A DNA stretch of 40,883 nt from the UHGV virus genome UHGV-0848487; one strand, 5' to 3'. Under the pieces are notes generated by a model. That model had not been told where the DNA came from and made no database searches. It saw only the letters and a program-made list of their open reading frames with translations. Positions 15,053-37,761 of this stretch are shown here, piece by piece; positions within the stretch are counted from its first letter, which is position 1, and every line of letters starts with the position of its first letter. The position numbers and the translations under genes are program-made. Origin of the DNA: a virus.

Positions 15053-15212
15053 CAGCTTCACCCCTTTTCTCATCCACCCCGACTAGCAGCGATTTAGTGT
15101 CGCCGCCACACACCGAAGTGCTACTAATTATTTCGTAAGCGTCTACCAGTTCGCCTAAAGTCCAGCTACCGTACCAGCCCACCTCTGTCTCTCCTCTCGC
15201 TTGTGTAAATGA

Positions 15213-15241
15213 ATAGTAGCCTATTCTATCTTAGTGTGCAA
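15213..15241 (-). promoter_or_regulatory. sigma70-like promoter TTGCAC-N17-TACTAT (minus strand) overlapping GAATAG palindrome
   Basis: Minus strand TTGCACactaagatagaataggcTACTATtcattta; near-identical to promoters at 16507..16535 and 37733..37761. Confidence 0.5.
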
Positions 15242-15248
15242 GTAAATT

Positions 15249-15422
15249 TTATTGATGTGTTATGGAGTCGATGAATGCCAGTAACTCCCTTTCCGCTTCT
15301 GCCTCTCTTTCTTCAAGCGACCAGGTAGCGGATTCCTCTGTCGCCGTTGCTAAATCGGTTTTCGCATCAACCATCGTGTCGATTAACGTGATTAGTCGTT
15401 CAGCCTGTTCTTTAGTAATCAT
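15249..15422 (-). CDS. hypothetical protein (57 aa)
   Basis: ATG 15420-15422 after AGGAG; MITKEQAERLITLIDTMVDAKTDL...; the overlapping plus-strand Ser-rich ORF 15262..15483 is judged a shadow. Confidence 0.4.
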   Translation of the reverse strand: MITKEQAERLITLIDTMVDAKTDLATATEESATWSLEEREAEAERELLAFIDSITHQ

Positions 15423-15502
15423 TGTTGCATCTCCTGCAATAGTCGCTTCGATTGTTGCGTTTGATGAAAGTGTCGCCTTTTGACGACACTAAGTTAAAGT
15501 TG

Positions 15503-15524
15503 TACGCTGCTGTGTAGCAGCGTA
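15503..15524 (-). terminator. hairpin ACGCTGCT-gtgt-AGCAGCGT downstream of the 15557 gene
   Basis: Perfect 8-bp stem; modest U content after it on minus strand. Confidence 0.35.
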
Positions 15525-15556
15525 AGTCACTCAGTAAAATCCCAAACTATTGAACA

Positions 15557-15757
15557 TCACACTTCTGGCGGCTCGGGTAACGGCATCCAGTGCGTCACGT
15601 ACTTATCGTAGTGATTCCAGAAAGGCTTTCTCCCGTCATCAGGAACTATGTAATAATCGTGCTGAACTGCGTTATTTAACGTTTCATACACCAGGAACTC
15701 TTTATCCGTATACCCATTACCCGGCAGCATCTCACTACACTTAATCCACTCACCCAT
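15557..15757 (-). CDS. DUF551-like protein (66 aa)
   Basis: C-terminal THWMPLPEPP motif; paralog on the plus strand at 20925..21182 ends ITHWMYLPELPEG. Confidence 0.5.
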   Translation of the reverse strand: MGEWIKCSEMLPGNGYTDKEFLVYETLNNAVQHDYYIVPDDGRKPFWNHYDKYVTHWMPLPEPPEV

Positions 15758-15905
15758 ACCTCACACCTCTTTCAATCAAGGATTGCACACCAGCTTTCCA
15801 CGCCCGCCACGCGAGACGCGTCTTAACGTTCAGGTACTCTTTCTTTGAACCCTTGTTAACCGGCAGACCCTCGACCACAGCCCACCGTTCAAATGCTTCT
15901 CTCAT
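15750..15905 (-). CDS. hypothetical protein (51 aa)
   Basis: ATG 15903-15905 overlapping upstream stop (ATGA); under track cutoff. Confidence 0.3.
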   Translation of the reverse strand: MREAFERWAVVEGLPVNKGSKKEYLNVKTRLAWRAWKAGVQSLIERGVRYG

Positions 15906-16090
15906 ACCAGAACCTCACATTCATCCCGATACGCGAACAATAACGACCCTTTGTACTCAATCATAAAACCATAATGGTTGATGCTGAACGCCGGAAAAAC
16001 ATCACCTACCGAGATACCGAAATCTATAAGCCTGCGGTCAGTTATACGGACAAGCCTGCGGTCAGTTATACGGATTCGCATTAACGGCAA
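15902..16090 (-). CDS. hypothetical protein (62 aa) containing a 24-bp in-frame tandem duplication
   Basis: ORF track; peptide RITDRRLV duplicated. Confidence 0.4.
   Translation of the reverse strand: MPLMRIRITDRRLVRITDRRLIDFGISVGDVFPAFSINHYGFMIEYKGSLLFAYRDECEVLV
16028..16075. repeat. 24-bp tandem direct duplication (2 copies, 23/24 identical)
   Basis: aagcctgcggtcagttatacgga repeated head-to-tail. Confidence 0.9.
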
Positions 16091-16284
16091 CCTCCCTCAG
16101 AGTCGTCGGCACAAGCATCACGATTCGATGCCGTTTTGATTGCCTGTAAGCTATTTAGCATTTGCTGGCTATCCATCGTAATAATTGTAATCCCGTCCGA
16201 TAAATGCACCTCGTAGCGTTCAGCTACGAAATATATTTCCTCGAAATCATGATGTTTCAGTTCTTCAAATAATTCTTCCATCAC
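16081..16284 (-). CDS. acidic hypothetical protein (67 aa)
   Basis: ORF track; early leftward operon. Confidence 0.4.
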   Translation of the reverse strand: MMEELFEELKHHDFEEIYFVAERYEVHLSDGITIITMDSQQMLNSLQAIKTASNRDACADDSEGGCR

Positions 16285-16472
16285 TTCGCCCCTTTGAATT
16301 TAAAATTGTTGCCAATGAGTTTTAAGTTCTCCTCTTCTACGTATATTTGTGAATTTACCCCTCTCACCTTTTGCACGGTCACTACGTACTCACCGGGAAA
16401 TAAATTAGATTTTAATTCAATTATGCCGTGTTCACCGTCGGCGCATTTAACCAACTGACCATTCTTAAACAT
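16281..16472 (-). CDS. hypothetical protein, first gene of leftward early operon
   Basis: Preferred ATG 16472 (MFKNGQLVKC) after AGGAG about 10 nt upstream. Confidence 0.4.
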   Translation of the reverse strand: MFKNGQLVKCADGEHGIIELKSNLFPGEYVVTVQKVRGVNSQIYVEEENLKLIGNNFKFKGAK

Positions 16473-16506
16473 AACCCTCACTCCTCTGTCTCGTTCCGAT
16501 AAGTGA

Positions 16507-16535
16507 ATAGTATCCTATTATGTTGGGGCGTGCAA
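16507..16535 (-). promoter_or_regulatory. sigma70-like promoter TTGCAC-N17-TACTAT (minus strand) overlapping GAATAG palindrome
   Basis: Minus strand TTGCACgccccaacataataggaTACTATtcactta, about 25 nt upstream of the 16472 gene. Confidence 0.5.
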
Positions 16536-16594
16536 GAGATTAGTTACGTTGCCGTTGTGATTCTTTCGTTTCTTAAAGGAGTACGCAACGCAGT

Positions 16595-16614
16595 GGGTGG
16601 GCGTTAGCCCACCC
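16595..16614. promoter_or_regulatory. GC-rich 8-bp hairpin GGGTGGGC-gtta-GCCCACCC in early intergenic region
   Basis: Perfect stem, no U-tract on either strand. Confidence 0.3.
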
Positions 16615-16779
16615 CAGCGGAGTGAAGTACTCTCTACCTCACTCACGGCAACTATAGAAACTTTTAATTATCAGTGACTTATGAAGGAGGGTAAAATTTA
16701 AATAGACGGGGGCTTTCTTGCCACTTGCTGTTACTGGGATGAAACTTAGATACTAACGTTACCAAGAGTACTGTTTAGC

Positions 16780-16802
16780 GCCCCGCTTTAGGGCGGGGCT
16801 TT
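16780..16802 (+). terminator. hairpin GCCCCGC-loop-GCGGGGC followed by TTTA
   Basis: Near-identical to the element at 5353..5372 but in opposite orientation. Confidence 0.35.
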
Positions 16803-16956
16803 AAGTACCCGAGACTTAAGAATGATGTTTCTAAGTAATTCTGAATTAAGGTCCTTCGATACATTGATTTTACAGCTACATTTTATTTTGTCAATAGGTT
16901 GTGTTTGGCTATTGTAGGTGTTATAGTTGTTTCACTTGATAAAGAGGGCACGTAAA

Positions 16957-17136
16957 ATGACACAGAAAGAAGTAGCAGACTTAATCGGAGTTTCTCCTAT
17001 GACGCTTAATCGCTGGCTGCGGTCGGGTAAGTTCCCTGAGTGTTGCCGGGTTATTAACGGCTACCGTCAGCCGGGTACGTTTGACCGCGCTACTGTGGAG
17101 GCGTGGATTAAGGAGAACGTAAAAGATGCTAACTAA
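16957..17136 (+). CDS. AlpA-like HTH transcriptional regulator
   Basis: Preferred ATG 16957 after AGAGGG; sequence EVADLIGVSPMTLNRWLRSGKFPE ... TVEAWIKEN matches AlpA/excisionase-like family pattern. Confidence 0.65.
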   Translation: MTQKEVADLIGVSPMTLNRWLRSGKFPECCRVINGYRQPGTFDRATVEAWIKENVKDAN

Positions 17137-17401
17137 ATTCCAGAAACATATATTAATGTGTGCACGCAGACTGACCGAAGCGAACGGCGCTTTTACGGTA
17201 GACGGGCTTCGGAGATACCGGTTGGATAATTACGGTGTAAACCCGATTAAACATGCTTTAGATGTGCTCGAGCGACATGGTGAGATTCTTAATAAAGGAA
17301 AGTTTTATCGGGCAACAAGAGCAACGCCGATTACAGAGAAAGCGAGAAGTATTGGAAAAGTGTTGGTCCCCGAGGGTAATATCTCCCGCGACCTGGAATA
17401 A
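17126..17401 (+). CDS. hypothetical protein (91 aa)
   Basis: ORF track; start overlaps AlpA-like stop. Confidence 0.45.
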   Translation: MLTKFQKHILMCARRLTEANGAFTVDGLRRYRLDNYGVNPIKHALDVLERHGEILNKGKFYRATRATPITEKARSIGKVLVPEGNISRDLE

Positions 17402-17459
17402 AAGAAAGCCCCGACGCGGTGAACGCCGAGGCTAAATTACTTGCTGAAGGAAATACAAC

Positions 17460-19745
17460 ATGTCCGATGTAATTTTATCCTACTCGTGGTCCCGTCGCAA
17501 CGCGCGGGCGGAGAAAAAGGATATAAACGTCAGAACCACACATACGGCAACACTGGATGACCTGAAAGAGTTAATTCAGCCGCTTGATGCTGTTCGTGAC
17601 GGGATTAACCCTAAGACCGCGCCAGGTTATATCACTGCCGCGTGCGATTCTATACACAGCACCGTAAAAGACCCGGAAACAGGTGACTTTAAGCAGGCCC
17701 GTAAAGGCTTCTTTTATCGCTGTGACGCGTCTGTAAGCAAATCGTCGCTGGCGTATCTGGACTTCGACAGCGCAACGCCGGAAGAGTACCAGGAAGCGGT
17801 GCGCCTGGTTAAACGCAGCCGCCTGGCTATGTGCCTCTACACCACGGCATCCCATACCGATGGGTCACCGCGCTTTCGCGTCGTCATGCCGCTGGGCCGC
17901 CCGGTAGAAGGCGGTGACATCATCCGTGTTCGTCATGGATTGCTGGAGCACTTCTTCAAAGGTATGGGTGCGGACCGCAGCGGGTTCACTCTGTCTCAGC
18001 CGATGTACCTGCCGCCGGTTGGCTCTACTGTTATCTGGTCGCGCCGCAACGACCTGATTGACCCGGACGAGTTACTGGAAGGCATCCCCGCCGTTGACGT
18101 TAGCAGCGCATCGGATTACCAGATACCGAAAGAACTGCGAACAGCGTTTACCGATGCGTTTGAAGCACTGGCGTTCGAGTACGGCGGTATTATGACCCCG
18201 CGCGGCCTTAAGATGCCCGCTACGCCGGAACACGCCGAGAACTACAGCGACCCGACACCGCGCCCGGATGACTTCCTGCTGTGCTTCCCGCGCGAGGGAT
18301 ATGAAGCGCCTAACGTAACCATGATTCACGACACCGACATTACGGCGACCGAGGGCATGTCACCGAAAGAGGTGTGGAAGTATGCGTGCGATGCAACCGG
18401 GCTGCCGTTCAGTGAAGTCGCAGAGGCCATCGGTTGGGGTGCACGTGAATCTGTTTCTTGCAGCCTGGACGACCTTGAAGACGACGAGGACTCAGAGGAG
18501 GACGAGTTACCGGAACCGGTAAAGGCTGATTTCGTCGTTGAAGGGTACATGCCGTCGGATTGCATATGGGATATCGTCGGGGAGTCCGGTACGTATAAAT
18601 CCTTCTATACGCTGGGGATGATGTACCTGAGCGCCACCGGATACCGGTTTGCGGGTGCTGACACCCAGCGTTGCCACCATTTCTATATCGACGGTGAAGG
18701 CGGCGCAGCTACCCGCACCCGTATCGATGCGCTCGCGGCTAAATATGGCGAGGAAGGTAAAGATTATGTACATGTTATAGACATGGGTGAAATACTCGGT
18801 ATGCGAGAGGATAAAAAACTTACAGCACTCATCCGTATGATGCGTGAAACAGCAGGAGAGGAACCGATCGGTATGATTGCGTTCGATACCCTCAACCAGA
18901 CGCTGGCCCTGACGATTGATAAGTTTGATGAGAACAGTTCATCAACTGCAATCGGCATGGGTAAAGTCATCGCTATCCTTAAAAAAGCGCGTGACGCGAC
19001 TAAAGCTGCGGTAGGCGTTGTACACCATACACCGAAGGGCGGAAAGAAAGCCCGAGGTAGTGGTGCGCTGTACGCTGGCGTCGATGTGGAGCTGACAATC
19101 GAACGCGCGACAGACCGTCAGATAAATGTATACCACTCTAAATTTAAGCATGGGCCGCAACAGAAGACGGTTGGTATGGTGCTTGAGTCGGTACAGTTCC
19201 GCGAAGCCCCGCCACCGAAAGAATACCGCGCGGTTGAGTTCCTCGGTAGCACAGAGGAATACGGCACAACCGTTAACCTCGACCTGCCTGAGCCGCACAA
19301 AGCGCTTGTGCTTATGCCGTGGGGCTTCGAACCGTTCAAGACCGACGAGGAGAAAGAGCGGGAAGAAGGACTGACTAAGGAAGGTAAAGAAAACGTACGT
19401 AGGACCATGGAGAACGCCGTCAACAGTTCGGAAGCCACGATACTGGCGGCGTTTGAACTGGCGGAAGGAACCTACAACGGCAACGAAGGTATCACGGTAG
19501 CCGCGGCAAATAAGCTCGCACAGTCTGACCCCAACGCGAAGGCGTTCAACTCCAAAGAAGTCATAGAACGCGGAAAGATTAAGAAAATGGTTGAGGCGGG
19601 GTATCTTGTACCTGGTACGGACGAAAACAATCAGATAATCCCGGGCCGTTACAGATTGAATACCCGAATAACGGACAACAAGATTCCGAAGACAATATAC
19701 GAACCGAATGAAATGCTGACAGTGACAGAGGAGGATTTGGAATAG
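17460..19745 (+). CDS. replication protein: primase-like N-terminal region fused to RecA-like/AAA ATPase (helicase-type) domain
   Basis: 761 aa; LAYLDFD acidic motif in N-terminal half; deviant Walker A GESGTYKS, Walker B-like IGMIAFDTLNQ, HHTPKGG motif in C-terminal half. Confidence 0.55.
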   Translation: MSDVILSYSWSRRNARAEKKDINVRTTHTATLDDLKELIQPLDAVRDGINPKTAPGYITAACDSIHSTVKDPETGDFKQARKGFFYRCDASVSKSSLAYLDFDSATPEEYQEAVRLVKRSRLAMCLYTTASHTDGSPRFRVVMPLGRPVEGGDIIRVRHGLLEHFFKGMGADRSGFTLSQPMYLPPVGSTVIWSRRNDLIDPDELLEGIPAVDVSSASDYQIPKELRTAFTDAFEALAFEYGGIMTPRGLKMPATPEHAENYSDPTPRPDDFLLCFPREGYEAPNVTMIHDTDITATEGMSPKEVWKYACDATGLPFSEVAEAIGWGARESVSCSLDDLEDDEDSEEDELPEPVKADFVVEGYMPSDCIWDIVGESGTYKSFYTLGMMYLSATGYRFAGADTQRCHHFYIDGEGGAATRTRIDALAAKYGEEGKDYVHVIDMGEILGMREDKKLTALIRMMRETAGEEPIGMIAFDTLNQTLALTIDKFDENSSSTAIGMGKVIAILKKARDATKAAVGVVHHTPKGGKKARGSGALYAGVDVELTIERATDRQINVYHSKFKHGPQQKTVGMVLESVQFREAPPPKEYRAVEFLGSTEEYGTTVNLDLPEPHKALVLMPWGFEPFKTDEEKEREEGLTKEGKENVRRTMENAVNSSEATILAAFELAEGTYNGNEGITVAAANKLAQSDPNAKAFNSKEVIERGKIKKMVEAGYLVPGTDENNQIIPGRYRLNTRITDNKIPKTIYEPNEMLTVTEEDLE

Positions 19746-19754
19746 GTAAAAATA

Positions 19755-19773
19755 AAGGGGCGTTAAGCCCCTT
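19755..19773 (-). terminator. hairpin AAGGGGC-gttaa-GCCCCTT, U-tract on minus strand
   Basis: Stop codon of the XRE-like gene lies in the loop; located 10 nt after the replication gene stop on the plus strand. Confidence 0.5.
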
Positions 19774-19978
19774 CACCCAACGCCAGCCACTTGGCATCTA
19801 CTTGCAGCACTTCCGCCAGTTTAAACAGCGTCGCTGGGCGGACGTCCTGAGTTACCCCAAGTGCCAGCTGGTTAATCGCGCCTTGGGAAACACCGGCCAG
19901 GACAGCCAGATGGCGCTGGGAGATACCGAGTTCTTTACGGCGTTGCTCTACACGGATACCTAGTTCAGATGGTTGCAT
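19763..19978 (-). CDS. XRE-family (Cro/CI-type) HTH transcriptional regulator
   Basis: 71 aa; LGISQRHLAVLAGVSQGAINQL helix-turn-helix; AAGGAG RBS; antisense to the replication module. Confidence 0.8.
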   Translation of the reverse strand: MQPSELGIRVEQRRKELGISQRHLAVLAGVSQGAINQLALGVTQDVRPATLFKLAEVLQVDAKWLALGEGA

Positions 19979-19998
19979 GTCAATTACTCCTTAGTCAG

Positions 19999-20027
19999 TT
20001 GATATGTGAATAGTACCATATTAATTA
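19999..20027 (+). promoter_or_regulatory. candidate promoter TTGATA-N17-TAATTA overlapping the divergent XRE promoter (-10 TACTAT on minus strand at 20010..20015)
   Basis: Contains GTGAATAGTA operator-like motif; face-to-face overlapping promoters. Confidence 0.4.
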
Positions 20028-20042
20028 TTTTAGAAAAGCCCA

Positions 20043-20071
20043 TTGACAAGTGAATAGTTCGCTATTATAGT
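20043..20071 (+). promoter_or_regulatory. strong sigma70-like promoter TTGACA-N17-TATAGT
   Basis: Consensus -35, 17-nt spacer containing GTGAATAGTtcgCTATTA palindrome, -10 TATAGT; 30 nt upstream of the 20103 gene. Confidence 0.6.
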
Positions 20072-20102: not shown

Positions 20103-20612
20103 ATGTTAGAGAAATTCTTAGTATTACTGGAACGTTTCGTAGTTGCGCATGAACTGATTGCTGCGAACAGCGCGAAACGACCGATGCCGTCAACTGAGTG
20201 TGTAGGTGAAATGCTTGTAGATGTATCGGTTACCGGAGAGGTGCTTGGAGTCGACCCAGGCACTGGCGTCGGGAAAGAAATCCCGGTCGAAGGCGAGGGC
20301 CTCGTTGACACTAAACCTGCGGAAGAAGAGAAGCCGAAACGCAAGCCGCGTAAAGCTAAAGTAGAGGAGCCAACGCCAGAGCCGGAAGAAGAGAAAGAAG
20401 AAGTCGATTACCAGTCTCTGCGCGACCAGATTCAGGCTATCGACGATGCGATTAACGAAGGCCCAAGCGATGCCGCGTGCGACGATTCTGACGAACTGCT
20501 GGAAGAGTTTACCGGTAAGAAGATGAAGATTGCAGCGATTAAAGACGAAGACCTGGCTGAGTATCTGGAGCGCCTGACAGCAATCAAGAACAAGTATTTC
20601 GAAGAAGAATAA
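20103..20612 (+). CDS. highly acidic hypothetical protein
   Basis: 169 aa, Glu/Asp-rich with short basic patch KPKRKPRKAK; GAGGAG RBS; first gene after strong promoter. Confidence 0.55.
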   Translation: MLEKFLVLLERFVVAHELIAANSAKRPMPSTECVGEMLVDVSVTGEVLGVDPGTGVGKEIPVEGEGLVDTKPAEEEKPKRKPRKAKVEEPTPEPEEEKEEVDYQSLRDQIQAIDDAINEGPSDAACDDSDELLEEFTGKKMKIAAIKDEDLAEYLERLTAIKNKYFEEE

Positions 20613-20655: not shown

Positions 20656-20928
20656 ATGATTTACCAACTATACCGCGCCGTTGACCGGCGGGATACCACA
20701 GAGGCGCTATGGTTATTGCGTGCGCCGTCCGGTGCGCACCAGATGGAAGAGATGGCGTACTTAGGCAAAGTACCGCTGTCTAAAGATATAGGCCGTCACG
20801 TGTCGCAGATTAAGCGCACGACATTCGCCAAGCCTGACTTTTATGTCTTTGAGTCGATGTACAGCTGGGCTATGCACTGCGACCATAAGACACGACATTT
20901 AATTGACCAGTGGGAGAGCAGGGTATGA
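20656..20928 (+). CDS. hypothetical protein (90 aa)
   Basis: ORF track; RBS GAGGG. Confidence 0.45.
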   Translation: MIYQLYRAVDRRDTTEALWLLRAPSGAHQMEEMAYLGKVPLSKDIGRHVSQIKRTTFAKPDFYVFESMYSWAMHCDHKTRHLIDQWESRV

Positions 20929-22436: not shown

Positions 22437-22465
22437 TTGACACCTGAATAGTTAGCTATTATAGT
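22437..22465 (+). promoter_or_regulatory. sigma70-like promoter TTGACA-N17-TATAGT
   Basis: Near-duplicate of promoter at 20043..20071 including TGAATAGTtagCTATTA palindrome. Confidence 0.6.
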
Positions 22466-25598: not shown

Positions 25599-25875
25599 TG
25601 AGGGGCGCGTGCAGAAATACGCAAAAGAGCGATTCGAGGCCCTGGGAGGCCTCGTACGCAAATTGTCGTACGAAAATAGAGCGGGCGCCCCCGACCTGCT
25701 GGTAATTCTCCCTGGTGGCATCATCTGGTTCGTCGAGGTTAAGAAAGACGAAAACACGAAGCCGGACCCGCACCAGTTACGAGAGCACGAGCGGATGCGT
25801 AAACGTGGTGCAAATGTTTTTGTCGTTGGTTCGTTTAAACAGGTTGACGACCTAATAGCGGGCTATTATAGTTAA
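25588..25875 (+). CDS. VRR-NUC domain nuclease
   Basis: GAPDLLVILPGGIIWFVEVKKDENTKPDPHQ matches VRR-NUC PD-(D/E)XK core; RBS GGGAGGGG. Confidence 0.7.
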   Translation: MSTPEGRVQKYAKERFEALGGLVRKLSYENRAGAPDLLVILPGGIIWFVEVKKDENTKPDPHQLREHERMRKRGANVFVVGSFKQVDDLIAGYYS

Positions 25876-25905: not shown

Positions 25906-26100
25906 ATGAGACACGAATATGACCGCAAACCAGCACGTGACATCGTACCGGGTGACATGATTTTCAACGTTAAGACACGTCAACCTGTTGCCGTTGATAC
26001 GGTGTTCGTCGAGTCGAACGGTAAACTGGTTATCGAAGATGTAACGGGTAACGTTACGGCGTTCGGGCGTAAAGAGCTGGTACTCTACATTAAGGGTTGA
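25906..26100 (+). CDS. hypothetical protein (64 aa)
   Basis: ORF track; RBS AAGGAA. Confidence 0.45.
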   Translation: MRHEYDRKPARDIVPGDMIFNVKTRQPVAVDTVFVESNGKLVIEDVTGNVTAFGRKELVLYIKG

Positions 26101-26102: not shown

Positions 26103-27527
26103 ATGTCTAAATTTATCCGTCGAGAGTACCAAAAGCTCATGACTTCATTCATGCTGCGGCATCCGCGCTGTAATATTTGGGCTTCGATGGGCGCGGGCAA
26201 AAGTTCCGCAACGATGTGGGTGCTTAACCGACTGTTCCGCAACGGCCAACTTAATGATGATGACCGCGTGTTAATCCTCGCCCCTTTACGTGTTGCGTCC
26301 GGTACGTGGCCATCAGAACAAACTAAGTGGGGATTCCCGTGTCTGCGCGTCGTAGATGCGACCGGTTCAGAGAAGCGCCGCATCGCGGCGCTGGAGTCAG
26401 ATGCTAACGTGGTGTGCACTAACTACGAAGTTATCGAATGGCTGATTGACTACTACGGCAAAGACGACTGGCCTTTTACCGTTATCGTCGCCGACGAAAG
26501 CACGAAGCTGAAATCATTCCGCAGCCGTTCAGGTGGAAGCAAGAGGGCGAAGGCGCTAAGTAAAGTTGCGTTCGGTAAGGTTAAGCGTTTCATTAACCTG
26601 ACTGGTACGCCGTCGCCGAACGGCCTCAAGGACTTATGGGGCCAGAACTGGTTTATCGACGCGGGTGAGCGCCTCGGTTCTTCATACACAGCATTCACCG
26701 ACCGCTGGTTTAACTCGGTACAGAAAGGCAAGTCAGCTATGGCGCGTGAGTACCATGCGCGCCCGGGCGCAGATAACGAGATTCACCAGAAGATGAAAGA
26801 CATTAGTCTCACGATTGACGCCGCCGAGTGGTTTGGATGTGAAGCGCCGATTATTGTACCAGTGGAAATTGACCTGCCGAAGAAAGCACGTCAGGCGTAC
26901 ATCGATATGGAGGAAAAGTTATTCGCGGAACTGGAGAGCGGGGAAGTTGAAGCGGCTAACGCCGCGGCGAAGACCTCAAAATGCTTGCAGCTTGCATCTG
27001 GTGCCGTATATGTGACGGGCGAAGACGGGGAAGCAACGAAAGACTGGGAGAAAGTGCACGACACGAAACTGGATGCGCTGGAGTCAATTGTTGAGGAGCT
27101 ACAAGGTGCGCCGTTGCTTGTGGCTTATCAGTTTAAGCATGAACTGGAGCGCATCCTTAAGCGATTCCCGCAGGCGCAGGCGTTCGCCAAAGGTGCGAAG
27201 GGTAATAAGCAGATGGAAGCGTGGAACCGTGGCGAAATCGAAATCTTATGCGTGCACCCGGCGTCAGCCGGGCATGGTTTGAATTTACAGGACGGCGGGC
27301 ATCATCTGGCGTTTATTTCGCAAGGCTGGAATCTTGAGCACTATTTGCAGGTTGTCGAGCGTATAGGCCCGGTCCGCCAGAAACAGGCTGGCCACGAGCG
27401 CCCGGTGTTCCTTTATCACATAGTCGCTAAAGACACTCTTGACGAGGTTGTTGCCGCGCGTACAGACGAGAAGAAATCGGTCCAGGAAGAATTGCTTAAT
27501 TATATGAAGAGAAGAGGTAAGAAATGA
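26103..27527 (+). CDS. SNF2-family DNA helicase
   Basis: GAGKS Walker A, VIVADESTKLK motif II, NLTGTPSPNGLKDLW motif III; preferred ATG 26103. Confidence 0.7.
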   Translation: MSKFIRREYQKLMTSFMLRHPRCNIWASMGAGKSSATMWVLNRLFRNGQLNDDDRVLILAPLRVASGTWPSEQTKWGFPCLRVVDATGSEKRRIAALESDANVVCTNYEVIEWLIDYYGKDDWPFTVIVADESTKLKSFRSRSGGSKRAKALSKVAFGKVKRFINLTGTPSPNGLKDLWGQNWFIDAGERLGSSYTAFTDRWFNSVQKGKSAMAREYHARPGADNEIHQKMKDISLTIDAAEWFGCEAPIIVPVEIDLPKKARQAYIDMEEKLFAELESGEVEAANAAAKTSKCLQLASGAVYVTGEDGEATKDWEKVHDTKLDALESIVEELQGAPLLVAYQFKHELERILKRFPQAQAFAKGAKGNKQMEAWNRGEIEILCVHPASAGHGLNLQDGGHHLAFISQGWNLEHYLQVVERIGPVRQKQAGHERPVFLYHIVAKDTLDEVVAARTDEKKSVQEELLNYMKRRGKK

Positions 27528-27661: not shown

Positions 27662-27665
27662 AGAA

Positions 27666-27685
27666 AAGGCCCCGTTTGGGGCCTT
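27666..27685. terminator. bidirectional intrinsic terminator at convergent junction
   Basis: AAGGCCCC-gttt-GGGGCCTT flanked by A-run upstream and TTTTATTT downstream. Confidence 0.6.
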
Positions 27686-27689
27686 AGTT

Positions 27690-30644
27690 TTATTTATCTT
27701 CTAGTGCTGCCAGCCTCTTCTCGAACTCGCGCATCTTCTTACGCTGATAGGCAATCTCTATGAAGAACATCTGGTCCGCCCTAACCCCCCATCTGCCGCC
27801 GGGAGGGGATACTTGTACAGTCTGGCCATCTTCATCAATATCATACGCAGCTTCAATTGAGTCGTAGCACAAGAAAGCATATTTACAATCGGTAGAATCT
27901 TTCTCCATAAGCCCATGGTTGACCAAGATGTCTCGCACATCTTGGGCTATCACACCGAAGTGTATCCTTGCAGTGTCACCCTTGATTGCTAGGCTTTCAA
28001 GCCACTTAAAAGATATTACATGTATATCCTCCCATGCGGTAAGGAGTTGTCCCTCAATTTCCTCTTTGTTCGTCTTAAGTGTACCATCAGACGTGTTTAT
28101 CGTACCGGTGGCCGCGTACACCGTAGTCCACCTATTACTTGCCGAACCTAAAGACACTCGCGCGTCTAAGTAAGGAAGAAAATTGTTGTATGAGTAGAAG
28201 CCTCCTGACGCATACATAATAGCCCTGTTAGGCGTTGCATGGTTTGCCCCGTACAGTTGCAGCAACGCACCATCGGAACTGGATGCACCATCACCACCGC
28301 TAACTATCAGTCTTTGACCCGATGGGGTTTTAGTGGGGACTGTTTTTGAAATCAGCCCGTAATCACCATCAAACCGTGCACGCACGGCGGACTGTTGTGT
28401 ACCATCGTATTCCAGCCCCGTTACATGCAGGGAGTACACGCTTACATCATTGTCAAACGTTAAAGGTGCTTCTACATGGCGTACACCATCTACCCCCATG
28501 GCGACAGGTATTGTACGGTTAGGAGTTGCTCCGTATTTGAAATCACGTGATACGTACGGGTGGTCTTCAATCTTTATCCGGTAGCTATATAAGTCAGCCG
28601 GATGCCCATCATGTTTGTACCATAACCTCGCACTGTTATCCCCTATGCTCCAGGGAGAGAAGAAGTCTTCCCCACCAAAGATATAGTACAACCAGCCATC
28701 TTTAACACAGACCGAGCCGACGCCGACAGCAGAGTTAACGATATGACCCTGGTATATTTGGTCGGTAATATTAAACCACTGAACATCATCTAAAGATGAA
28801 GGCCAGGACGACACATTAACTTTGCACATAAAGGTCCTCGGATACGAACCTTCATAGCGGCTGTCCTGCTCGCCACCTTCCCACTCACCAAAGGCACGTT
28901 CTGTACCAAAGATATAGAGATAGTCACCTACTTTAGCGAACGGAAGATTGGAGTGATGTACATTGTTCGGAAATCGCAAGTAGCTCCAGTTTTGCCCAGA
29001 ATCGGTGCTCATCGCCAGTGTAGAGCCAGGGGAAGTAGGTAATGTGCCGCGTGTGGTAAGGTATAACACACCACCATAACTTTTCACGCACGGCTCAGAA
29101 GCGTTATCAGCGTATGCCTGAGCGACAGTGCGACGAACGAATACGCCTGGATTGTCATACACGTTACTAAAATACAAGACACCGAGACGCCGAGGGGACA
29201 CATCGCCGTTGTGATAGCCGACAGCGATAGTGTAGTTAACATCATCTATGACCGCAAAACTATGTGTCTCCGTGACACACAAATCAGCGTTAGTGGAGTA
29301 TGCTACCCCAGGCAATTCGGTAATTTCCCACGGGCTGTCCCAGAATCGCGTTGCGAAGTTCCAGGTAACACCCGCATTGTTTATGGTGGAACTCGCCGGG
29401 CTTGAGAGCGTAACAGTGAACGTATTTCGGTTAATTATAGACGAAACCGTCATATTACCCGATACGCCAGTTGCCGATGTATTAGAGAAGTTAACCGCAT
29501 CTCCTGCTTTTAGGCCATGATTTTCTATGACAATGGTAGCAGTAGTGGAGCCAGAACTAATAGTTATTCCGCCGGTTGGGTGTCTAAAATACGGCATTGG
29601 GCGTGACCAAAGTTCTGCCTTCTTCATCCGCATATTAGATAAGTAGCGGGTTTCTATAACTGCATATAATCGGTTGCCACACGTACCCATGCTCATGCAG
29701 TGGTAGTTAACTCTGTCCGTAGAAACACTAGCGTTATAGTCAGCATGGATTGGAGTCAACCACTCAGGCATTGACCAAGTCTGCCCGTCGTCACCAGAGC
29801 GAACCCAAGCTACATGTAAGTTTTGAACGCCATGTCGTTCGCCTGCCATAAACGGGGCGTAAATAACATGGTCGTAGACGAAAGTTTTATCCTGCGTCCA
29901 TGCGTTGTAGAACGGGGTATCCGTCACCTTAGTTAGTGAGCCGTTAAAGAAGCCATCAGCTACATAAGTAAGCGGTTGCCCGGCTACGCGCTCGTAAACG
30001 AATGCAGCATTCTTAAATTTACTAATGTCAGGTAATTGGGAAACTTTATAAGTCAAACCCCTGCCGTCTATAATCCAATTGTTGGGGGAAGCTGCTAATA
30101 CATTAAAAATAGATTGAGTATCATCAGTTACGCCGTCGCCCACGGCGCCCCATGCGCGCGGGTCGTATTCGTCCTTCCATCGCGCCACATGTAAATCTGG
30201 GTACAGAATTGCACCATTTACATCAGATATTTGCTGCCGCAGTATGACCGACCCGACAGGCTGCCACGCCCCATCTGCCACGCCACCGGTGGACTGCGGA
30301 GAAGATGACGCTGGGATAATTTTTGGTAGAGCACCCAACCAATAGTACCAATCCCCGTCACCGCCAGAGGACGACGGCCACAAAACTGCGGTGTTTCGGT
30401 CGTTAGCGGATAGTGTACCGCCTGACGTGAAATCAAAATCTGCCAGTTTAAAACCTGCGTCACGCAACACGGCGGGGAGTGTCTTCTGCGTCTGTCCAGT
30501 AACCTGATTTGTCGCGTAATCAATATCGGCACCACCGGCGACACCGCCGGATTTGCCAGTGATAACCTCGGCCTCGAAAATCTGATGTTTCTTGGCGGTT
30601 TGTAAATCCGCCAGGCTTAAAACGTCACCGCATCCGCTTGACAT
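27690..30644 (-). CDS. tailspike / tail fiber with sialidase-like beta-propeller (candidate endosialidase) and C-terminal intramolecular chaperone domain
   Basis: 984 aa; Asp-box motifs SGDDGQTW and STDSGQNW; C-terminal SDGTLK ... HFGVIAQDV region resembling autoproteolytic chaperone domains of endosialidases/tail fibers. Confidence 0.7.
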   Translation of the reverse strand: MSSGCGDVLSLADLQTAKKHQIFEAEVITGKSGGVAGGADIDYATNQVTGQTQKTLPAVLRDAGFKLADFDFTSGGTLSANDRNTAVLWPSSSGGDGDWYYWLGALPKIIPASSSPQSTGGVADGAWQPVGSVILRQQISDVNGAILYPDLHVARWKDEYDPRAWGAVGDGVTDDTQSIFNVLAASPNNWIIDGRGLTYKVSQLPDISKFKNAAFVYERVAGQPLTYVADGFFNGSLTKVTDTPFYNAWTQDKTFVYDHVIYAPFMAGERHGVQNLHVAWVRSGDDGQTWSMPEWLTPIHADYNASVSTDRVNYHCMSMGTCGNRLYAVIETRYLSNMRMKKAELWSRPMPYFRHPTGGITISSGSTTATIVIENHGLKAGDAVNFSNTSATGVSGNMTVSSIINRNTFTVTLSSPASSTINNAGVTWNFATRFWDSPWEITELPGVAYSTNADLCVTETHSFAVIDDVNYTIAVGYHNGDVSPRRLGVLYFSNVYDNPGVFVRRTVAQAYADNASEPCVKSYGGVLYLTTRGTLPTSPGSTLAMSTDSGQNWSYLRFPNNVHHSNLPFAKVGDYLYIFGTERAFGEWEGGEQDSRYEGSYPRTFMCKVNVSSWPSSLDDVQWFNITDQIYQGHIVNSAVGVGSVCVKDGWLYYIFGGEDFFSPWSIGDNSARLWYKHDGHPADLYSYRIKIEDHPYVSRDFKYGATPNRTIPVAMGVDGVRHVEAPLTFDNDVSVYSLHVTGLEYDGTQQSAVRARFDGDYGLISKTVPTKTPSGQRLIVSGGDGASSSDGALLQLYGANHATPNRAIMYASGGFYSYNNFLPYLDARVSLGSASNRWTTVYAATGTINTSDGTLKTNKEEIEGQLLTAWEDIHVISFKWLESLAIKGDTARIHFGVIAQDVRDILVNHGLMEKDSTDCKYAFLCYDSIEAAYDIDEDGQTVQVSPPGGRWGVRADQMFFIEIAYQRKKMREFEKRLAALEDK

Positions 30645-33212: not shown

Positions 33213-33568
33213 AATTCAATCTCCGTGTACGTGTCTCTGAGGTCCGCCAGCCTGTCAAGCCGTACCTGACGTGAGGCAAGCTCGCAATGGCTGACCATCC
33301 CGTCGAAGTAAACTCCTGCGTGCCACACGATACGACCCCCACGGTGATACCCCATAAGCACCGCACAGAAGTTTTCAGGCTTATCAATTTTCGTAAGCCC
33401 TTTTGTGTTGCGGTGGCCTTCGTCAAACGCTTCGTTAATTGCCGCCGGGCTTGTAACGTCGAACGCCGGAGTATCTAGCCCGGCATCCGCGCGGACAATG
33501 CGCACGTGATGCCAGCAATTGCGCTTGCGAAAGTCGTAAGGTATGCCCGTGTAGTCGTTAATATTCAT
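33203..33568 (-). CDS. tail assembly protein with NlpC/P60-like peptidase signature (lambda K-like)
   Basis: 121 aa; Cys-His-His arrangement NCWHH ... WHAGVY ... SHCE; position between L-like and J-like genes. Confidence 0.5.
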   Translation of the reverse strand: MNINDYTGIPYDFRKRNCWHHVRIVRADAGLDTPAFDVTSPAAINEAFDEGHRNTKGLTKIDKPENFCAVLMGYHRGGRIVWHAGVYFDGMVSHCELASRQVRLDRLADLRDTYTEIEFWR

Positions 33569-34080
33569 GTGGTCAACAGGCCGCGTAATAACGGTATCTC
33601 TTTAGGTGTCATCAGTATACCAGTGCTTCGTTGGTTCAGCATAGGCGTACCAACATCCGCAGAAAACTCGCCTTTCTCCTGGTTGATGGCCTGTAACTCG
33701 TACACGACGGGGCCGTCAGCCGGGTAAGACAGGTCGGTGCTGACGTAACGGCGAAATACGAACTTCGGCAACTCGGTGTTACTCATCGGGATTTTATCCA
33801 TCTCATCATCAAGTTGATTGAGGATATCCGGTAGAGTAAACGTCGTCGTCTGGTCCATGTCACTGTTGTTAGCCGCGCCCGACGCCTCCATCGGGGTTGG
33901 CTCGAATGTGATTGTTTCACCCGTCTCCAGTGTTGCTGTAAGTTCCTGTAGCCCGCGCACAAGATAATACGTCTTTGACAGCAACGGGTGGCTGATTTGC
34001 AACGTGATGTAGTCCATCTCACCGTCGGGATTTGAGGCCAGCTTACGGCGATAGGCGGCTTCTACTGATTCCTGGCTCAT
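33565..34080 (-). CDS. minor tail protein (lambda L-like)
   Basis: Preferred ATG 34080 overlapping upstream stop; position. Confidence 0.45.
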   Translation of the reverse strand: MSQESVEAAYRRKLASNPDGEMDYITLQISHPLLSKTYYLVRGLQELTATLETGETITFEPTPMEASGAANNSDMDQTTTFTLPDILNQLDDEMDKIPMSNTELPKFVFRRYVSTDLSYPADGPVVYELQAINQEKGEFSADVGTPMLNQRSTGILMTPKEIPLLRGLLTT

Positions 34081-34577
34081 TGCATCGGGTCCCAAATTCG
34101 TGGAAACGTTGATTGTGCAGTTCCGTAGGCTTTAAGGAAACACCCCAGCCCGTCACCATAGCAACCGTACAAATCTGGCAGATTGTTAATCAGGCACTGG
34201 TTCTCAAGGTTCTGGAACGGCGATTTCTCAGCGGTTGCCGTGAAAGTAATCGTCCAGTTAATGCCGTCTTCGGTGGACTCGGCGATGGTGGACGTAATTG
34301 TTACCTGATAATCCTCAATACCCATGCCGAAGTCGTGCGCCATCCAGAAACTTGACGCACCGCCGTCGACTTTTTCGAGGAACGACAGAAACGCCTGCCG
34401 TCCCAGCGCGGATGTAATCAGGGTTACGCTTATTGGGAACACGTCGTAATATGTGTCACGACCCTGGCGCACCCCGCCACCGGCTAAATCTACACTCCAG
34501 ACGTTGTTACGTCTGGTCATTGAGTAGCCTTTCGATACAATTGGCTTAAGGCTACGTGGGAAATATAAGTCGCTCAT
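34077..34577 (-). CDS. minor tail protein (lambda M-like)
   Basis: 166 aa directly downstream of tape measure gene. Confidence 0.45.
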   Translation of the reverse strand: MSDLYFPRSLKPIVSKGYSMTRRNNVWSVDLAGGGVRQGRDTYYDVFPISVTLITSALGRQAFLSFLEKVDGGASSFWMAHDFGMGIEDYQVTITSTIAESTEDGINWTITFTATAEKSPFQNLENQCLINNLPDLYGCYGDGLGCFLKAYGTAQSTFPRIWDPMQ

Positions 34578-36850
34578 TACTTGAACCCCGGCGCGTTTCT
34601 TGTGGCCTTGCGGGCCTTGCTAATCTTACTGTTGCTGTTCTGCAAAGAGGCCGCCACTTGCTCTTCAATGATGATACGCAAACGGCCTTCATCATCTTGT
34701 TCAGTGGATACGTTGCCAATCTGAGAACTCGTGTTGTTTACGATGGTAACATTAGACGGTCCGGAAGAAGACCCGTTTTGCCCCATAATTTCTTTCATCT
34801 GCTGCGCGGTGCGAACACGCGATGCCCCCGCGGGCATGATAACCTCAGGTTTACCACGTTCGGCGATGGTGGAAGCCTGCCCCGCGGATAACTGACCGCC
34901 CTGTTCACGCGCAGATCTGATAGCGGAAATCTGCGCCATACCCGCCCCAACGGCAGCGGCGGCGGCTACAGGTGCCAGGAACGGACCGACTACAGGGATA
35001 GCTGCCGTGGACTTGTACGCCTCAATAGCTGCGGTGTATGTGGCTATAGTGGCCTGTACGATAGCGAATGCCTTATACGCACCAGAAGCCTCGCCCAAAG
35101 CCGAACCGATGTTTGAGGCCATGTTACCAAAGGCGGTTGCCGTCGCGTCGGCGCGTTTCGTGGCGTACTGCTCGTTGATGGCGTTAAGAGCGGCCTGATA
35201 CTGCTTCTCGCTAATCAAACCCTGCTCGCGGTACTTATCCGCTACCGCCAGTTTCTGCTGTTCCTGGATGTCGAGAAGCTCAAGCTCAGTAGCGTTCTGA
35301 CCCATAATCTGAGCCATGAAGTCGTCACCTTTCTGCTGCTTTTCCTGGGCTTCTTTCTGGCGTTTATCCAGTTCATCTTGTCGTTTTTTCCCGGCTTCGA
35401 GGACGATAGCTGTTTTAGCTTGTTCATATTCTTTCAGGGACAACGCGCCCTGGCTGTAGAACTCTTTTGCCTTAGCCAGTTTCTGCTGTTCCTGCGCGTC
35501 GATAGCCTTTAACTCGTCGTTGTTCTGACGGGCCAAAGTGTCGAGGTAATCTTGCGCCTGATTCCGCAATTGCTCTGCTTTCTTGGCGGCGGCTTTTGCT
35601 GCTTTATCGTCGGTTGTCCCCACCCCACCAGTTCCGCCCTTTTTATTAACAAGGCTGGCTAAGTCTATTTCTTGCTTCTTACGCTCGTTGTACTGCTTGC
35701 GCTGTTCCTCAATTTCTTTCTTACGCTGCTTAGACCTGTTGGTGATGGCCTGTGATTCGGCCTCGGCGCGTTTTATGCTGGCGGCGTATGCGGCGTCAGC
35801 TTCTGCGGTCAGGTTTTTAAATGTGAGTGCTGCCGTTTTGCTCGGATCAAACACGTCTGCGAGGGTCTGACCTAACGCTACGGCGTAATCGTCAATGCGC
35901 TGGAACCACGCAATAACCTCGTGAAACGTCTGCTGGATGTCAGGCAACCATTCACGGATAGCATCCGGTATAGTACCCAGCGAGTCTGACATATCCGCGG
36001 ATTTGTCCTCGGTATCGTATGCCAGGTCGTTTAAGGCATCAGAAATAAACTTGAATGATTCATTGAACAGTGTCACCCAATCCTGGAGCGTGGCGGCTAT
36101 CTCATTAGACGCAATGGCGTCGGTGAGTGCCGAAATAGCGTCTTCTGCCTTCGCGGCTTGCTCACCTACGGCGTCGCCGAAACCGGATTGCGCCACCGCA
36201 AGTACAAGGCCATCAAAGGAGTCCGCCAGGCTCGACAACTGACCGTCTAACGTCTTAGAGCGCGTCTCCATCGCCCCGGCGAAATCGGTGTTGCCGATGT
36301 TTAGCAGGTATTTCTGAATCTCTTCGGAGTTCTTTTTAACCGTGGTGGTGACGCCGCGGAACGTGAACGAAACGGTATCTGCCTGTTGGGAAGACTTGAT
36401 ACCGAACTCTTTCAGTCGCTCAAACTCAAAGGTACTGGCGTCGGCAACCGCCTCAATCATCTGATTAAGGTCTTTACCCATAGCCGCCGCGGTGTTGCCG
36501 TAGGAGATTAACGCCTCTTTGCTTGGGTTCAGGCCGAGGGCCACCAGCTTAGTAAAGCCTTCCACCGCCTGGTTAAGACCATATGGGGTTTCTTTTGCGA
36601 ACTGTTGCAGGACGCTGAAAGCCTTAGCCGCGTTCTCAGCGCTCCCGGTCATTGTGATGAGGCCGGAGTTCAGCTTATCGAAGTTGCGCTGGGAGTCCAC
36701 CAGCGCACTGAACACCTGTTTGGCAGTTTCCAGACTGACAACGGCAGCGGCGGCGGCCCCCGCGGCTTTGGTAAGCCCGTTCAGTTGTGATGTGGTTTTA
36801 TCGACGCCGGTCGATGATACTCGTACGATCAAGCTAGCGGTATCAGCCAT
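34577..36850 (-). CDS. tail tape measure protein
   Basis: About 757 aa, Ala/Gln/Lys/Glu-rich coiled-coil with Gly-rich C-terminal region; preferred ATG 36850. Confidence 0.8.
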   Translation of the reverse strand: MADTASLIVRVSSTGVDKTTSQLNGLTKAAGAAAAAVVSLETAKQVFSALVDSQRNFDKLNSGLITMTGSAENAAKAFSVLQQFAKETPYGLNQAVEGFTKLVALGLNPSKEALISYGNTAAAMGKDLNQMIEAVADASTFEFERLKEFGIKSSQQADTVSFTFRGVTTTVKKNSEEIQKYLLNIGNTDFAGAMETRSKTLDGQLSSLADSFDGLVLAVAQSGFGDAVGEQAAKAEDAISALTDAIASNEIAATLQDWVTLFNESFKFISDALNDLAYDTEDKSADMSDSLGTIPDAIREWLPDIQQTFHEVIAWFQRIDDYAVALGQTLADVFDPSKTAALTFKNLTAEADAAYAASIKRAEAESQAITNRSKQRKKEIEEQRKQYNERKKQEIDLASLVNKKGGTGGVGTTDDKAAKAAAKKAEQLRNQAQDYLDTLARQNNDELKAIDAQEQQKLAKAKEFYSQGALSLKEYEQAKTAIVLEAGKKRQDELDKRQKEAQEKQQKGDDFMAQIMGQNATELELLDIQEQQKLAVADKYREQGLISEKQYQAALNAINEQYATKRADATATAFGNMASNIGSALGEASGAYKAFAIVQATIATYTAAIEAYKSTAAIPVVGPFLAPVAAAAAVGAGMAQISAIRSAREQGGQLSAGQASTIAERGKPEVIMPAGASRVRTAQQMKEIMGQNGSSSGPSNVTIVNNTSSQIGNVSTEQDDEGRLRIIIEEQVAASLQNSNSKISKARKATRNAPGFK

Positions 36851-37232
36851 GATTTCTACCTTCAAAGATTGCTTCTAAGCCCATGATAATGTCTATCTCG
36901 AACAGGCTAAGCTGTTTTTGCGTAACATCGAGATAGGCTTTCAGGTCTTGCCACGTAACGGATTCTCTTGCGAACAATACTACAGCGTCCTCGCGCACGT
37001 GTCGCGTAAACTTAATGTCGCAGTACGTCTCGAAGGTGGATATAAAAAGGGGCGGGCATTCTGGCCCACCCCGTCGCGCTGCACGTTTTTTCTTATCGAT
37101 TACACCCATCGCGATAAGCGCCTGTTCGTGTCCGTCGGCTATAGAATCAAACTCTCTGATTTTATGCTTATCCACAAACTCATAGGTGGCGAACCTGTAC
37201 AGCGCGTCTACTTTTCCTGTAATGCTTTGCGC
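36843..37232 (-). CDS. tail assembly chaperone T-like ORF (candidate -1 frameshift extension of G)
   Basis: Frame is open from 37232, overlaps last 8 codons of the G-like gene in the -1 frame; ends 8 nt into the tape measure gene. Confidence 0.35.
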   Translation of the reverse strand, partial: AQSITGKVDALYRFATYEFVDKHKIREFDSIADGHEQALIAMGVIDKKKRAARRGGPECPPLFISTFETYCDIKFTRHVREDAVVLFARESVTWQDLKAYLDVTQKQLSLFEIDIIMGLEAIFEGRNHG

Positions 37233-37624
37233 TCAGCGTTATGGAACGCTGCTACCTGTGTGCCTAATGCCTTGAACTGGTCCAGCAATTTGTTAAATGC
37301 TTCTTTAGAGAAAGGCTCATCAAAGCTCCAGCCGTTTACGACTTCTGCCGCGAGTTGCCGGTTGAGGTCTTCCGCCAGTTCGTTAATAGCCAGGTTATAT
37401 TCAGTATAGTCGCCGGATTCTTTGGCGGCTTTTTCCAGTTCTTCGAAACGCGCCAACCCGCGACGGTACGAAATAATGAAAGCACGCCCCGCTTTAACGG
37501 CGACATCCGCATCGGGACTTACAACGTTAAGCCATTCACCGGAGTCTTCGCCGTTTGGCAGCAGAATGGGCATCTTCTTGCCTACCAGTGCTTTCTCTTC
37601 GAAATAAAAATCAGAAAGTTTCAT
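37208..37624 (-). CDS. tail assembly chaperone (lambda G-like)
   Basis: 138 aa acidic protein immediately upstream of T-like ORF and tape measure gene. Confidence 0.45.
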   Translation of the reverse strand: MKLSDFYFEEKALVGKKMPILLPNGEDSGEWLNVVSPDADVAVKAGRAFIISYRRGLARFEELEKAAKESGDYTEYNLAINELAEDLNRQLAAEVVNGWSFDEPFSKEAFNKLLDQFKALGTQVAAFHNAERKALQEK

Positions 37625-37732
37625 TCTTTAATCCTTTGGTTAAGAGGTTACAGGTTAACGATAAATGCGCCAGACGGGAACCACCCGCTTTTCGTGTGCG
37701 ACACTAGGCGCAAAATTATTCTACCACAATAC

Positions 37733-37761
37733 TTGCACACCCCAATATAATAGGGTACTAT
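37733..37761 (+). promoter_or_regulatory. sigma70-like promoter TTGCAC-N17-TACTAT driving plus-strand accessory island
   Basis: TTGCACaccccaatataatagggTACTATtcactta; near-identical to the minus-strand early promoters at 15213..15241 and 16507..16535. Confidence 0.55.

Follow-up and report, generated by a model that had tools for sequence, protein, structure and literature searches.

The 40,883-bp virus genome UHGV-0848487, whose entire length is referred to here as the window, carries a recurrent 16-bp palindrome embedded in predicted promoters. Its common core is a dyad of the form K-AATAG-N4-CTATT-M (6-4-6), which on the evidence of the sequence is quite probably the operator of a phage helix-turn-helix (HTH) protein. 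The binder that we favour, with less assurance, is a 71-residue XRE protein resembling phage 434 Cro (19763..19978, minus strand), which would occupy the site as a dimeric repressor. A preliminary description of the window had proposed a common palindromic operator through which a phage HTH regulator ties together several transcription units, including an accessory island, and this stands as the best-supported interpretation.

The replication region of the window is 93–95% identical to that of the Escherichia phages K1ind2/3, K1H and K1G (genus Kagunavirus, subfamily Guernseyvirinae), and its tailspike is a K1 endosialidase. The gene order is that of K1ind2 and fPoEco01 in reverse orientation. 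Because both ends of the window fall within the tail-tube gene, it appears to be a complete, circularly permuted Kagunavirus genome. Scans of the window for tRNAs and Rfam families gave no match.

An unbiased scan of the window for 5-mer palindromes with gaps of 0–10 identified AATAG-N4-CTATT as the most enriched, with six exact copies (~175-fold), and in an unbiased repeat scan the motif formed the largest direct-repeat family. At ≤1 mismatch the pattern occurs 10 times against 0.90 expected, a number reached by none of 100 dinucleotide shuffles; the longer form GAATAGT-N3/4-CTATT has five exact matches against 0.01 expected. Every one of the 10 falls in a promoter, between genes or at the end of a gene. 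Altogether there are seven strong copies and about three weak ones. The strong copies are GAATAGTAGCCTATTC, a perfect palindrome (15211..15226), GAATAGTATCCTATTA (16505..16520), GAATAGTACCATATTA, which has two mismatches (20008..20023), GAATAGTTCGCTATTA (20052..20067), GAATAGTTAGCTATTA (22446..22461), TAATAGCGGGCTATTA (25853..25868) and TAATAGGGTACTATTC (37748..37763). Among their 14 half-sites AATA is present in all and the following G in 13, with G or T as the outer base. The centre of the palindrome contributes ~0.1–0.4 bits, the two central bases of each half carrying near-zero information in this set. The six copies cited in the preliminary description (at 15208, 16501, 20004, 20049, 22445 and 37745) are all there, within ~4 nt of those positions; the seventh strong copy, at 25853-25868, had been overlooked. 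The copies had also been assigned a shared exact prefix, GTGAATAG, followed by CTATTA. This prefix is found in four of the six and not in the other two, and CTATTA is absent from the 15211 copy, which ends CTATTC, and from the 20008 copy, which ends ATATTA.

Each of the seven strong copies overlaps a predicted sigma70-type promoter, lying between or across its -35 and -10 hexamers. In class A promoters (TTGCAC-N17-TACTAT) the dyad is centred at the upstream edge of the -10, near -13. This class comprises P15213(-), with TTGCAC at 15241-15236 and TACTAT at 15218-15213; P16507(-), at 16535-16507, which would drive a leftward block of small early open reading frames (ORFs); and P37733(+), at 37733-37761, which is placed to drive the Imm, exonuclease, kinase and ATPase genes, an island within the tail genes. 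In class B promoters (TTGACR-N17-TATAGT) the dyad begins 3 nt past the -35 and is centred near -19. Here belong P20043(+) (TTGACA, 20043-20071), predicted to drive replication and recombination genes and divergent from the XRE promoter; P22437(+) (TTGACA, 22437-22465), ahead of the genes for a DUF2815 protein and DNA polymerase; and P25844(+) (TTGACG, 25844-25872), ahead of a 64-residue ORF and a helicase gene. The two TTGACA-N17-TATAGT promoters, at 20043 and 22437, match the consensus hexamers at 11 of 12 positions. The remaining strong copy, at 20008, overlaps the -10 of the leftward promoter of the XRE gene (TACTAT, 20015-20010, minus strand), a -10 identical to that of class A and accompanied by a poor -35.

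A third arrangement, class C, is seen in two weaker copies on the minus strand that follow GAMTAG-TTGA-CTWTTM and are centred near -33, the four central bases together with two more making up the -35 hexamer. One of them, GACTAG-TTGA-CTATTA (12233..12248), spans the -35 of P12242(-) (TTGACT-N17-TATATT) and is kept in K1ind2 and fPoEco01. The other, GAATAG-TTGA-CTTTTC (5572..5587), spans the -35 of a minus-strand promoter (TTGACT-N17-TAAGCT) upstream of the spanin and head genes, and is adjoined by a reversed half-site, AACTATTC|GAATAGTT (5580-5595). The related half-sites previously noted at 5580-5595 and at 4830-4839 are indeed present. A degenerate copy, TAATAGCATACTATAA (7200..7215), overlaps the start codon of the head-morphogenesis gene directly after the portal-gene terminator. 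Relatives keep this copy too, perhaps through coding or ribosome-binding-site constraint alone.

The two promoter classes that had been said to share the motif, TTGACA-N17-TATAGT and TTGCAC-N17-TACTAT, were thus recovered at the positions given for them. The claim that placement is strict did not hold: the motif takes at least two registers, ~-13 and ~-19, and a third over the -35 in the weaker copies. Since one palindrome recurs in promoters whose hexamers differ, and in more than one register, it is not a promoter element, and the variation in register favours an operator. The half of the palindrome that lies outside the promoter hexamers is kept as well as the half inside. Several other good promoters of the window have no copy of the motif, namely those of the primase-helicase operon and at 12364(-), and the upstream promoter of the small terminase gene.

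We examined conservation in complete genomes together with 47 Kagunavirus fragments obtained by scanning IMG/VR with the class B pattern. To gather orthologous promoters without reference to the motif, we used a 26-nt anchor lying 3' of the -10, and aligned the sequences with MAFFT. The half-sites proved near-invariant. Variation is found in the central N4 and in the stretch that links the -35 to the palindrome, where it includes a 1-nt indel. Central variants among P22437 orthologues are TTAG, TTGG, CAAG, CGAG and TACT, and among P25844 orthologues CGGG, CGAA, CAGA and CTAG. The -35 and the -10 are separated by 17 bp, or by 18 bp in some relatives. Invariant half-sites around a variable centre are the pattern expected of a dimeric protein that reads two half-sites. 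The IMG/VR scan found no class B pattern outside Kagunavirus-sized contigs (24–45 kb) or fragments, and so gave no sign of the motif beyond this group.

The motif scan over this genome and its relatives, which had been suggested as a check, extended these results to the neighbouring genera. Equivalent promoters of Jerseyvirus keep the motif with T as the outer base, where Kagunavirus has G; the Jerseyvirus SE2 has seven sites at ≤1 mismatch against 1.26 expected, and Jersey has four exact copies. Neither of the Cornellvirus-type genomes SP-031 and St162 has AATAG-N4-CTATT. Genomes of this type carry instead TATTA-N6-TAATA, also spanning 16 bp, with three exact copies and nine at ≤1 mismatch against 0.98 expected. 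These sites lie on positionally equivalent promoters: at the start of the small-ORF block, at the unit lying between tail-tube and tail-chaperone genes, at an inserted head-cluster gene and at the -35 of two more.

Two accessory genes were seen to carry a promoter with its palindrome. Both are inserted within the head cluster on the opposite strand, in fPoEco01 (palindrome at 5590-5605) and in SP-031 (26544-26559), and each has the promoter-palindrome cassette specific to its genus; that of fPoEco01 is near-identical to P37733 of the window. Inserted genes of this kind thus seem either to bring the cassette along or to acquire it.

Both proteins named earlier as candidate binders exist. The XRE/Cro-type protein belongs to Pfam HTH_3 (9.7e-12), and the AlpA-like candidate is a 59-residue protein (16957..17136, plus strand) with an AlpA/Xis/MerR-like winged HTH of Pfam HTH_17 (4.8e-9). 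Proteins of the HTH_3/Cro family bind 14–18-bp palindromes as dimers. The best solved-structure match of the XRE protein is 434 Cro (1zug, also 71 residues; E 1.8e-6 over residues 6-68). Its AlphaFold2 model, of moderate quality (pLDDT 74), has five helices and finds 2cro as the top fold match in the PDB (Foldseek E 0.025), followed by the DNA-binding domains of P22 C2 and 434 repressor and by controller proteins of restriction-modification systems. The XRE gene is monocistronic and divergent from P20043, and in this divergent region two dyads stand back to back, 20008-20023 on the XRE promoter and 20052-20067 on the opposing one, a layout that suggests autoregulation. The window thus combines a small HTH_3 protein, a palindrome in the 14–18-bp range with half-sites spaced ~10 bp apart, predicted overlap with promoter cores and sites at the regulator's own promoter, as in Cro/CI-type systems.

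Comparison of relatives also bears on the choice between the two proteins. The phage fPoEco01 has a Jersey-like HTH_17 allele (80–82% identical, and 70% identical to that of the window), yet its XRE protein and its operators are of Kagunavirus type. The operator subtype, outer G versus T, therefore appears to track the XRE clade and not HTH_17. Cornellvirus-type genomes lack HTH_17 and have an XRE homologue together with their own family of 16-bp palindromes. We favour the XRE protein because of the Cro-type geometry of the dyad, the autoregulation-like layout, the lack of a conserved site at the HTH_17 promoter, the behaviour of the operator subtype and the presence of palindromes in genomes without HTH_17.

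The gene neighbourhood of the XRE protein differs between the genera. In Cornellvirus-type genomes the XRE gene lies directly upstream of the primase-helicase gene and co-directional with it (SP-031, 11098-13749; compare 16957-19978 of the window). The primase module of Kagunavirus and Jerseyvirus stands the other way round, with a promoter of its own and HTH_17 as its first gene, and the XRE gene, left monocistronic, is convergent with it. In bacterial genomes we found only distant XRE homologues without the motif, with a single close match: an 18,987-bp contig of a Bacteroidota assembly (NZ_JACVEL010000022.1, 'Taishania pollutisoli' scaffold22) encodes an XRE protein identical to that of SE2, with TAATCG-N4-CTATTA upstream. 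This contig is presumably a Jerseyvirus contaminant of the assembly.

Under the proposed scheme, host sigma70 RNA polymerase would fire the motif-bearing promoters on infection. Because these promoters are near-consensus with optimal spacing, no activator should be needed and firing would be expected on entry. The units fired would be those for replication and recombination, DNA polymerase and helicase, the Imm/exonuclease/kinase island and both leftward groups of small ORFs. The XRE gene would be expressed from its promoter in the divergent control region at 20.0 kb, and its product would bind as a dimer, a recognition helix sitting on each of the two AATAG half-sites, whose centres lie 9–10 bp, or about one helical turn, apart. 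The bound dimer would occlude the -10, the spacer or the -35 and so exclude RNA polymerase. As the protein accumulates, it would damp all motif-bearing units together in a common negative feedback, which is the simplest model; its own gene, with the weakest copy (20008), would be the last to be damped. The motif, its enrichment, its place in promoters, the way it is conserved and the protein families are observed, whereas we infer that a protein binds, which one it is, and the sign and timing of regulation.

Several observations weigh against repression by the XRE protein as just set out. In the sole RNA-sequencing study of a Kagunavirus, on phage K1B4, the homologue of HTH_17 (_008) is classed as 'early' and that of the XRE protein (_004) as 'middle', and the class that peaks latest includes Imm, the methylases and DNA polymerase, encoded behind three motif-bearing promoters (gene identities confirmed). 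The preliminary description had spoken of 'early' transcription of the motif-bearing units, which these late peaks do not bear out. The K1B4 classes do not show the simple pattern of early shut-off either. The time course ran from 5 to 120 min against a latent period of 30 min, phage reads never exceeded 8.9%, and the temporal classes are too coarse to bear on sign or timing; they do suggest that the motif-bearing units behave as a distinct class. From the comparative side, HTH_17 has exactly the genus distribution of the motif: Kagunavirus and Jerseyvirus have both, SP-031 and St162 neither. The predicted recognition helix of the Jerseyvirus XRE protein (SQSLITH) is closer to that of Cornellvirus (TQSAISH) than to that of Kagunavirus (SQGAINQ), and Jerseyvirus and Kagunavirus share the operator core despite this difference. 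Covariation of the operator with the XRE protein is accordingly weak, resting on few independent events. The Cornellvirus palindromes are AT-rich and imperfect and overlap -10-like sequence.

These points lend some credit to HTH_17 as the binder. In this alternative, two HTH_17 monomers would sit on the inverted half-sites, and the protein, made very early, would hold down the promoters of the replication, Imm and small-ORF units. Only four K1B4 genes are classed as 'early', the homologue of HTH_17 among them, and the genes behind motif-bearing promoters peak late there. RacA, which has the same fold, can read inverted repeats. We consider HTH_17 an improbable binder, though not a far-fetched one. 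Its nearest solved relatives are BldC, RacA and the phage excisionases (Xis), and it is established that the closest of these, BldC and phage Xis, bind direct repeats head to tail. The protein consists of the HTH, a wing and one short C-terminal helix, with no dimerisation helix. Its gene is the first of the primase-helicase operon, whose promoter has no conserved copy of the motif; a CAATAG-N11-CTATTG found there (16892-16914) was rejected as an operator, not being kept in fPoEco01, SE2 or Jersey. The predicted recognition helix of HTH_17 differs between the window (SPMTLNRW) and fPoEco01 (TRQTINNW), yet the two phages have the same operators and the operator subtype follows the XRE protein. 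Genomes without HTH_17 still have a promoter-overlapping family of 16-bp palindromes. A MerR-type activator, another way in which a winged HTH could act, binds a dyad between the -35 and the -10, as found here, and the phage does encode a MerR-like winged HTH. MerR-regulated promoters differ in having spacers of 19–20 bp, against 17 bp here and 18 bp in some relatives, and HTH_17 lacks the long coiled-coil helix through which such regulators dimerise, so that MerR-type activation was rejected.

It is also conceivable that no dedicated regulator is involved, a shared promoter cassette having spread by duplication or recombination, for example with accessory genes, and its symmetry being incidental or serving bidirectional binding of RNA polymerase. 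The near-identical cassette driving the inserted gene of fPoEco01 (5590) fits such spread, the palindrome coincides in part with the -10 (CTAT in TACTAT, TA in TATAGT), and the 37748 copy is flanked by divergent genes. We rate this as quite unlikely. The same palindrome occurs in different registers in promoters that differ in hexamers and flanks, and the half not needed for the promoter is as conserved as the -10 while adjoining spacer bases drift. Most copies have no divergent gene, and strict two-fold symmetry is not expected of a sigma70 promoter. Binding by a host transcription factor common to E. coli and Salmonella, suggested by the occurrence of the motif in phages of both hosts, is very unlikely; the motif is missing from the related Cornellviruses of Salmonella. 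In the weak class C copies (GACTAGTTGACTATTA), 13 of 16 positions agree with the trp operator. Host TrpR was nonetheless rejected as an improbable binder, since the main consensus does not have the GNACT bases that TrpR needs. Among E. coli regulators, none is known to us to use GAATAG-N4-CTATTC.

The motif has been in print under a different label. In the fBC-Eco01 paper (PMC9825357), seven 'phage promoters' found with PHIRE, with the consensus tgAATAGTa-ccTATTat-T, were assigned to a phage-encoded RNA polymerase, and the vB_EcoS-Golestan paper (PMC7203180) also lists seven PHIRE promoters. Sequence and copy number are those of the motif in these sister phages; the difference is that the papers describe phage-polymerase promoters or plain promoters, whereas we place operators within promoters of the host sigma70 type. 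That the sites are promoters of a phage polymerase has next to no chance of being right and is effectively refuted by gene content. These phages encode no RNA polymerase of their own: in the window, all ORFs of more than 300 residues are otherwise assigned, and the two of more than 800 residues encode the endosialidase tailspike and a tail protein. The sites are two-fold symmetric, lie inside canonical sigma70 promoters and take several registers; an asymmetric block at fixed distance without sigma70 hexamers is not what is seen. The promoter label would thus be mistaken, and the operator reading corrects a published annotation. In the searchable literature we found no proposal of these sites as operators and no binding data.

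Loading sites for antiterminators of the Q or Pseudomonas AlpA kind, the Q- and AlpA-binding elements (QBE/ABE), likewise place a regulator-binding element in a promoter spacer. In the Pseudomonas AlpA system (PMC9371919) the ABE is one asymmetric hexamer bound by one monomer, DNA is contacted by residues 128-142, and an N-terminal ring domain enters the RNA exit channel. We rejected such a loading site here. The elements of the window are dyads, in contrast to the asymmetric ABE, and the phage protein has 59 residues, far fewer than the ring-domain protein that reads the ABE.

Among known systems, the closest likeness of the favoured XRE protein and its predicted operators is to phage 434 Cro (also P22 and lambda Cro). 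Both the XRE protein and 434 Cro are five-helix HTH_3 proteins of 71 residues, 434 Cro being its best match in sequence and in fold. The OR and OL operators of 434 are likewise palindromes that overlap promoter cores, and in them a variable centre separates conserved outer half-sites spaced by about one helical turn; two sites in the regulator's own divergent control region add to the likeness. Unlike in 434 and lambda, neither an integrase nor a second, CI-type repressor was found among the ORFs of the window or in the annotated sister genomes K1ind2 and fPoEco01, there being no lysogeny module; a lysis-lysogeny switch of the lambdoid type (CI, Cro and integrase) is thus not what this phage has. 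The operators of 434 and lambda are clustered (OR1-3, OL1-3), whereas those proposed here are scattered over at least seven promoters in three registers. The 434 operator has 14 bp (ACAA-N6-TTGT) and the window site 16 bp (6-4-6, AATAG), binding to the latter being predicted. The restriction-modification controller proteins C.AhdI, C.BclI and C.Csp231I, which are among the fold matches, offer a second parallel. They are small XRE-type dimers whose palindromic binding sites (C-boxes) overlap the promoter from which they are themselves expressed, and they set the timing of gene expression once a new cell has been entered. They differ in acting on one or two promoters of their own operon, activating and repressing through paired boxes, where here single dyads lie at many unlinked promoters.

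A bolder version of the XRE scheme can be drawn from these features. One Cro-like protein of a strictly lytic siphovirus would act as a genome-wide regulator through a portable promoter-operator cassette, repressing at least seven promoters in three registers. Accessory genes, such as fPoEco01 gp07 and the Imm/exonuclease/kinase island, would join the regulon with the cassette, and the same protein would activate the tail operon from 37748-37763, switching an early unit off and a late unit on. The idea of activation comes from the position of this dyad ~44 bp upstream of a leftward extended -10 promoter, a geometry resembling that of lambda CI at OR2 acting on PRM. We hold this larger scheme to be unlikely, and give low weight to activation of the tail operon because the spacing between dyad and leftward promoter differs by ~2 bp in Jersey.

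The leftward promoter itself, TGGTAGAAT (37718-37747, minus strand), is a putative extended -10 promoter, TTGGGG-N16-TAGAAT after TGG, with the -10 at 37723-37718, and overlaps P37733(+) back to back. A consensus scan found no canonical leftward promoter in the 150-bp gap there, and TGGTAGAAT would be the only plausible promoter of the tail operon.

Other elements were noted in the window. A second recurrent element lies in late intergenic regions of the head and lysis genes (4806-4820 and 5590-5606) and consists of ATGTTGGAATAA and a 13-bp palindrome, GAATAA-A-yTATTC, whose half-sites are operator-like and stand 1 bp apart. In contrast to the N4 operator, it is also conserved in Cornellvirus-type genomes as GAATAAATTATTC, with three copies in SP-031 (25438, 26069 and 26596) and in St162 at 26136 and 26850. 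Late promoters may use it as an element, or a different protein may bind there. Between P16507(-) and the HTH_17/primase operon there is a long non-coding stretch of ~420 bp (16540-16950) containing a GC-rich hairpin (~16588-16618) and, on the plus strand, a terminator-like hairpin followed by a T-run (16780-16803), with no match in Rfam; an origin, a small RNA or a leader might lie here. The leftward small-ORF region contains a perfect 23-bp tandem direct repeat, AAGCCTGCGGTCAGTTATACGGA, at 16028-16050 and 16052-16074 with one base between. Near-identical bidirectional terminator hairpins, AAAAGGCCCC....GGGGCCTTAGTTTTAT, close two late operons (27664-27693 and 40190-40219), and a related one lies at 5646-5675. 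Several conserved genes directly 3' of motif-bearing promoters (20103-20612, 17126-17401, 20656-20928, 25906-26100 and 14507-15073) have no Pfam family and match only PHROGs of unknown function (phrog_3127, 5169, 4965, 4879 and 6094).

The mechanism proposed is of a textbook type, ordinary phage gene control, and the motif itself has been reported before. Its interest lies in the phages concerned. The Guernseyvirinae (Kagunavirus and Jerseyvirus) comprise several hundred sequenced phages, which are in development against E. coli K1, uropathogenic E. coli and Salmonella, and their gene regulation is essentially undescribed. The resulting regulon would be simple, with a single small protein acting through a 16-bp site on about seven promoters, and protein and site together could be put to use as a compact, orthogonal pair of repressor and operator. 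The operator reading would also explain why strictly lytic phages carry a 'repressor' gene, a recurring safety question in phage therapy.

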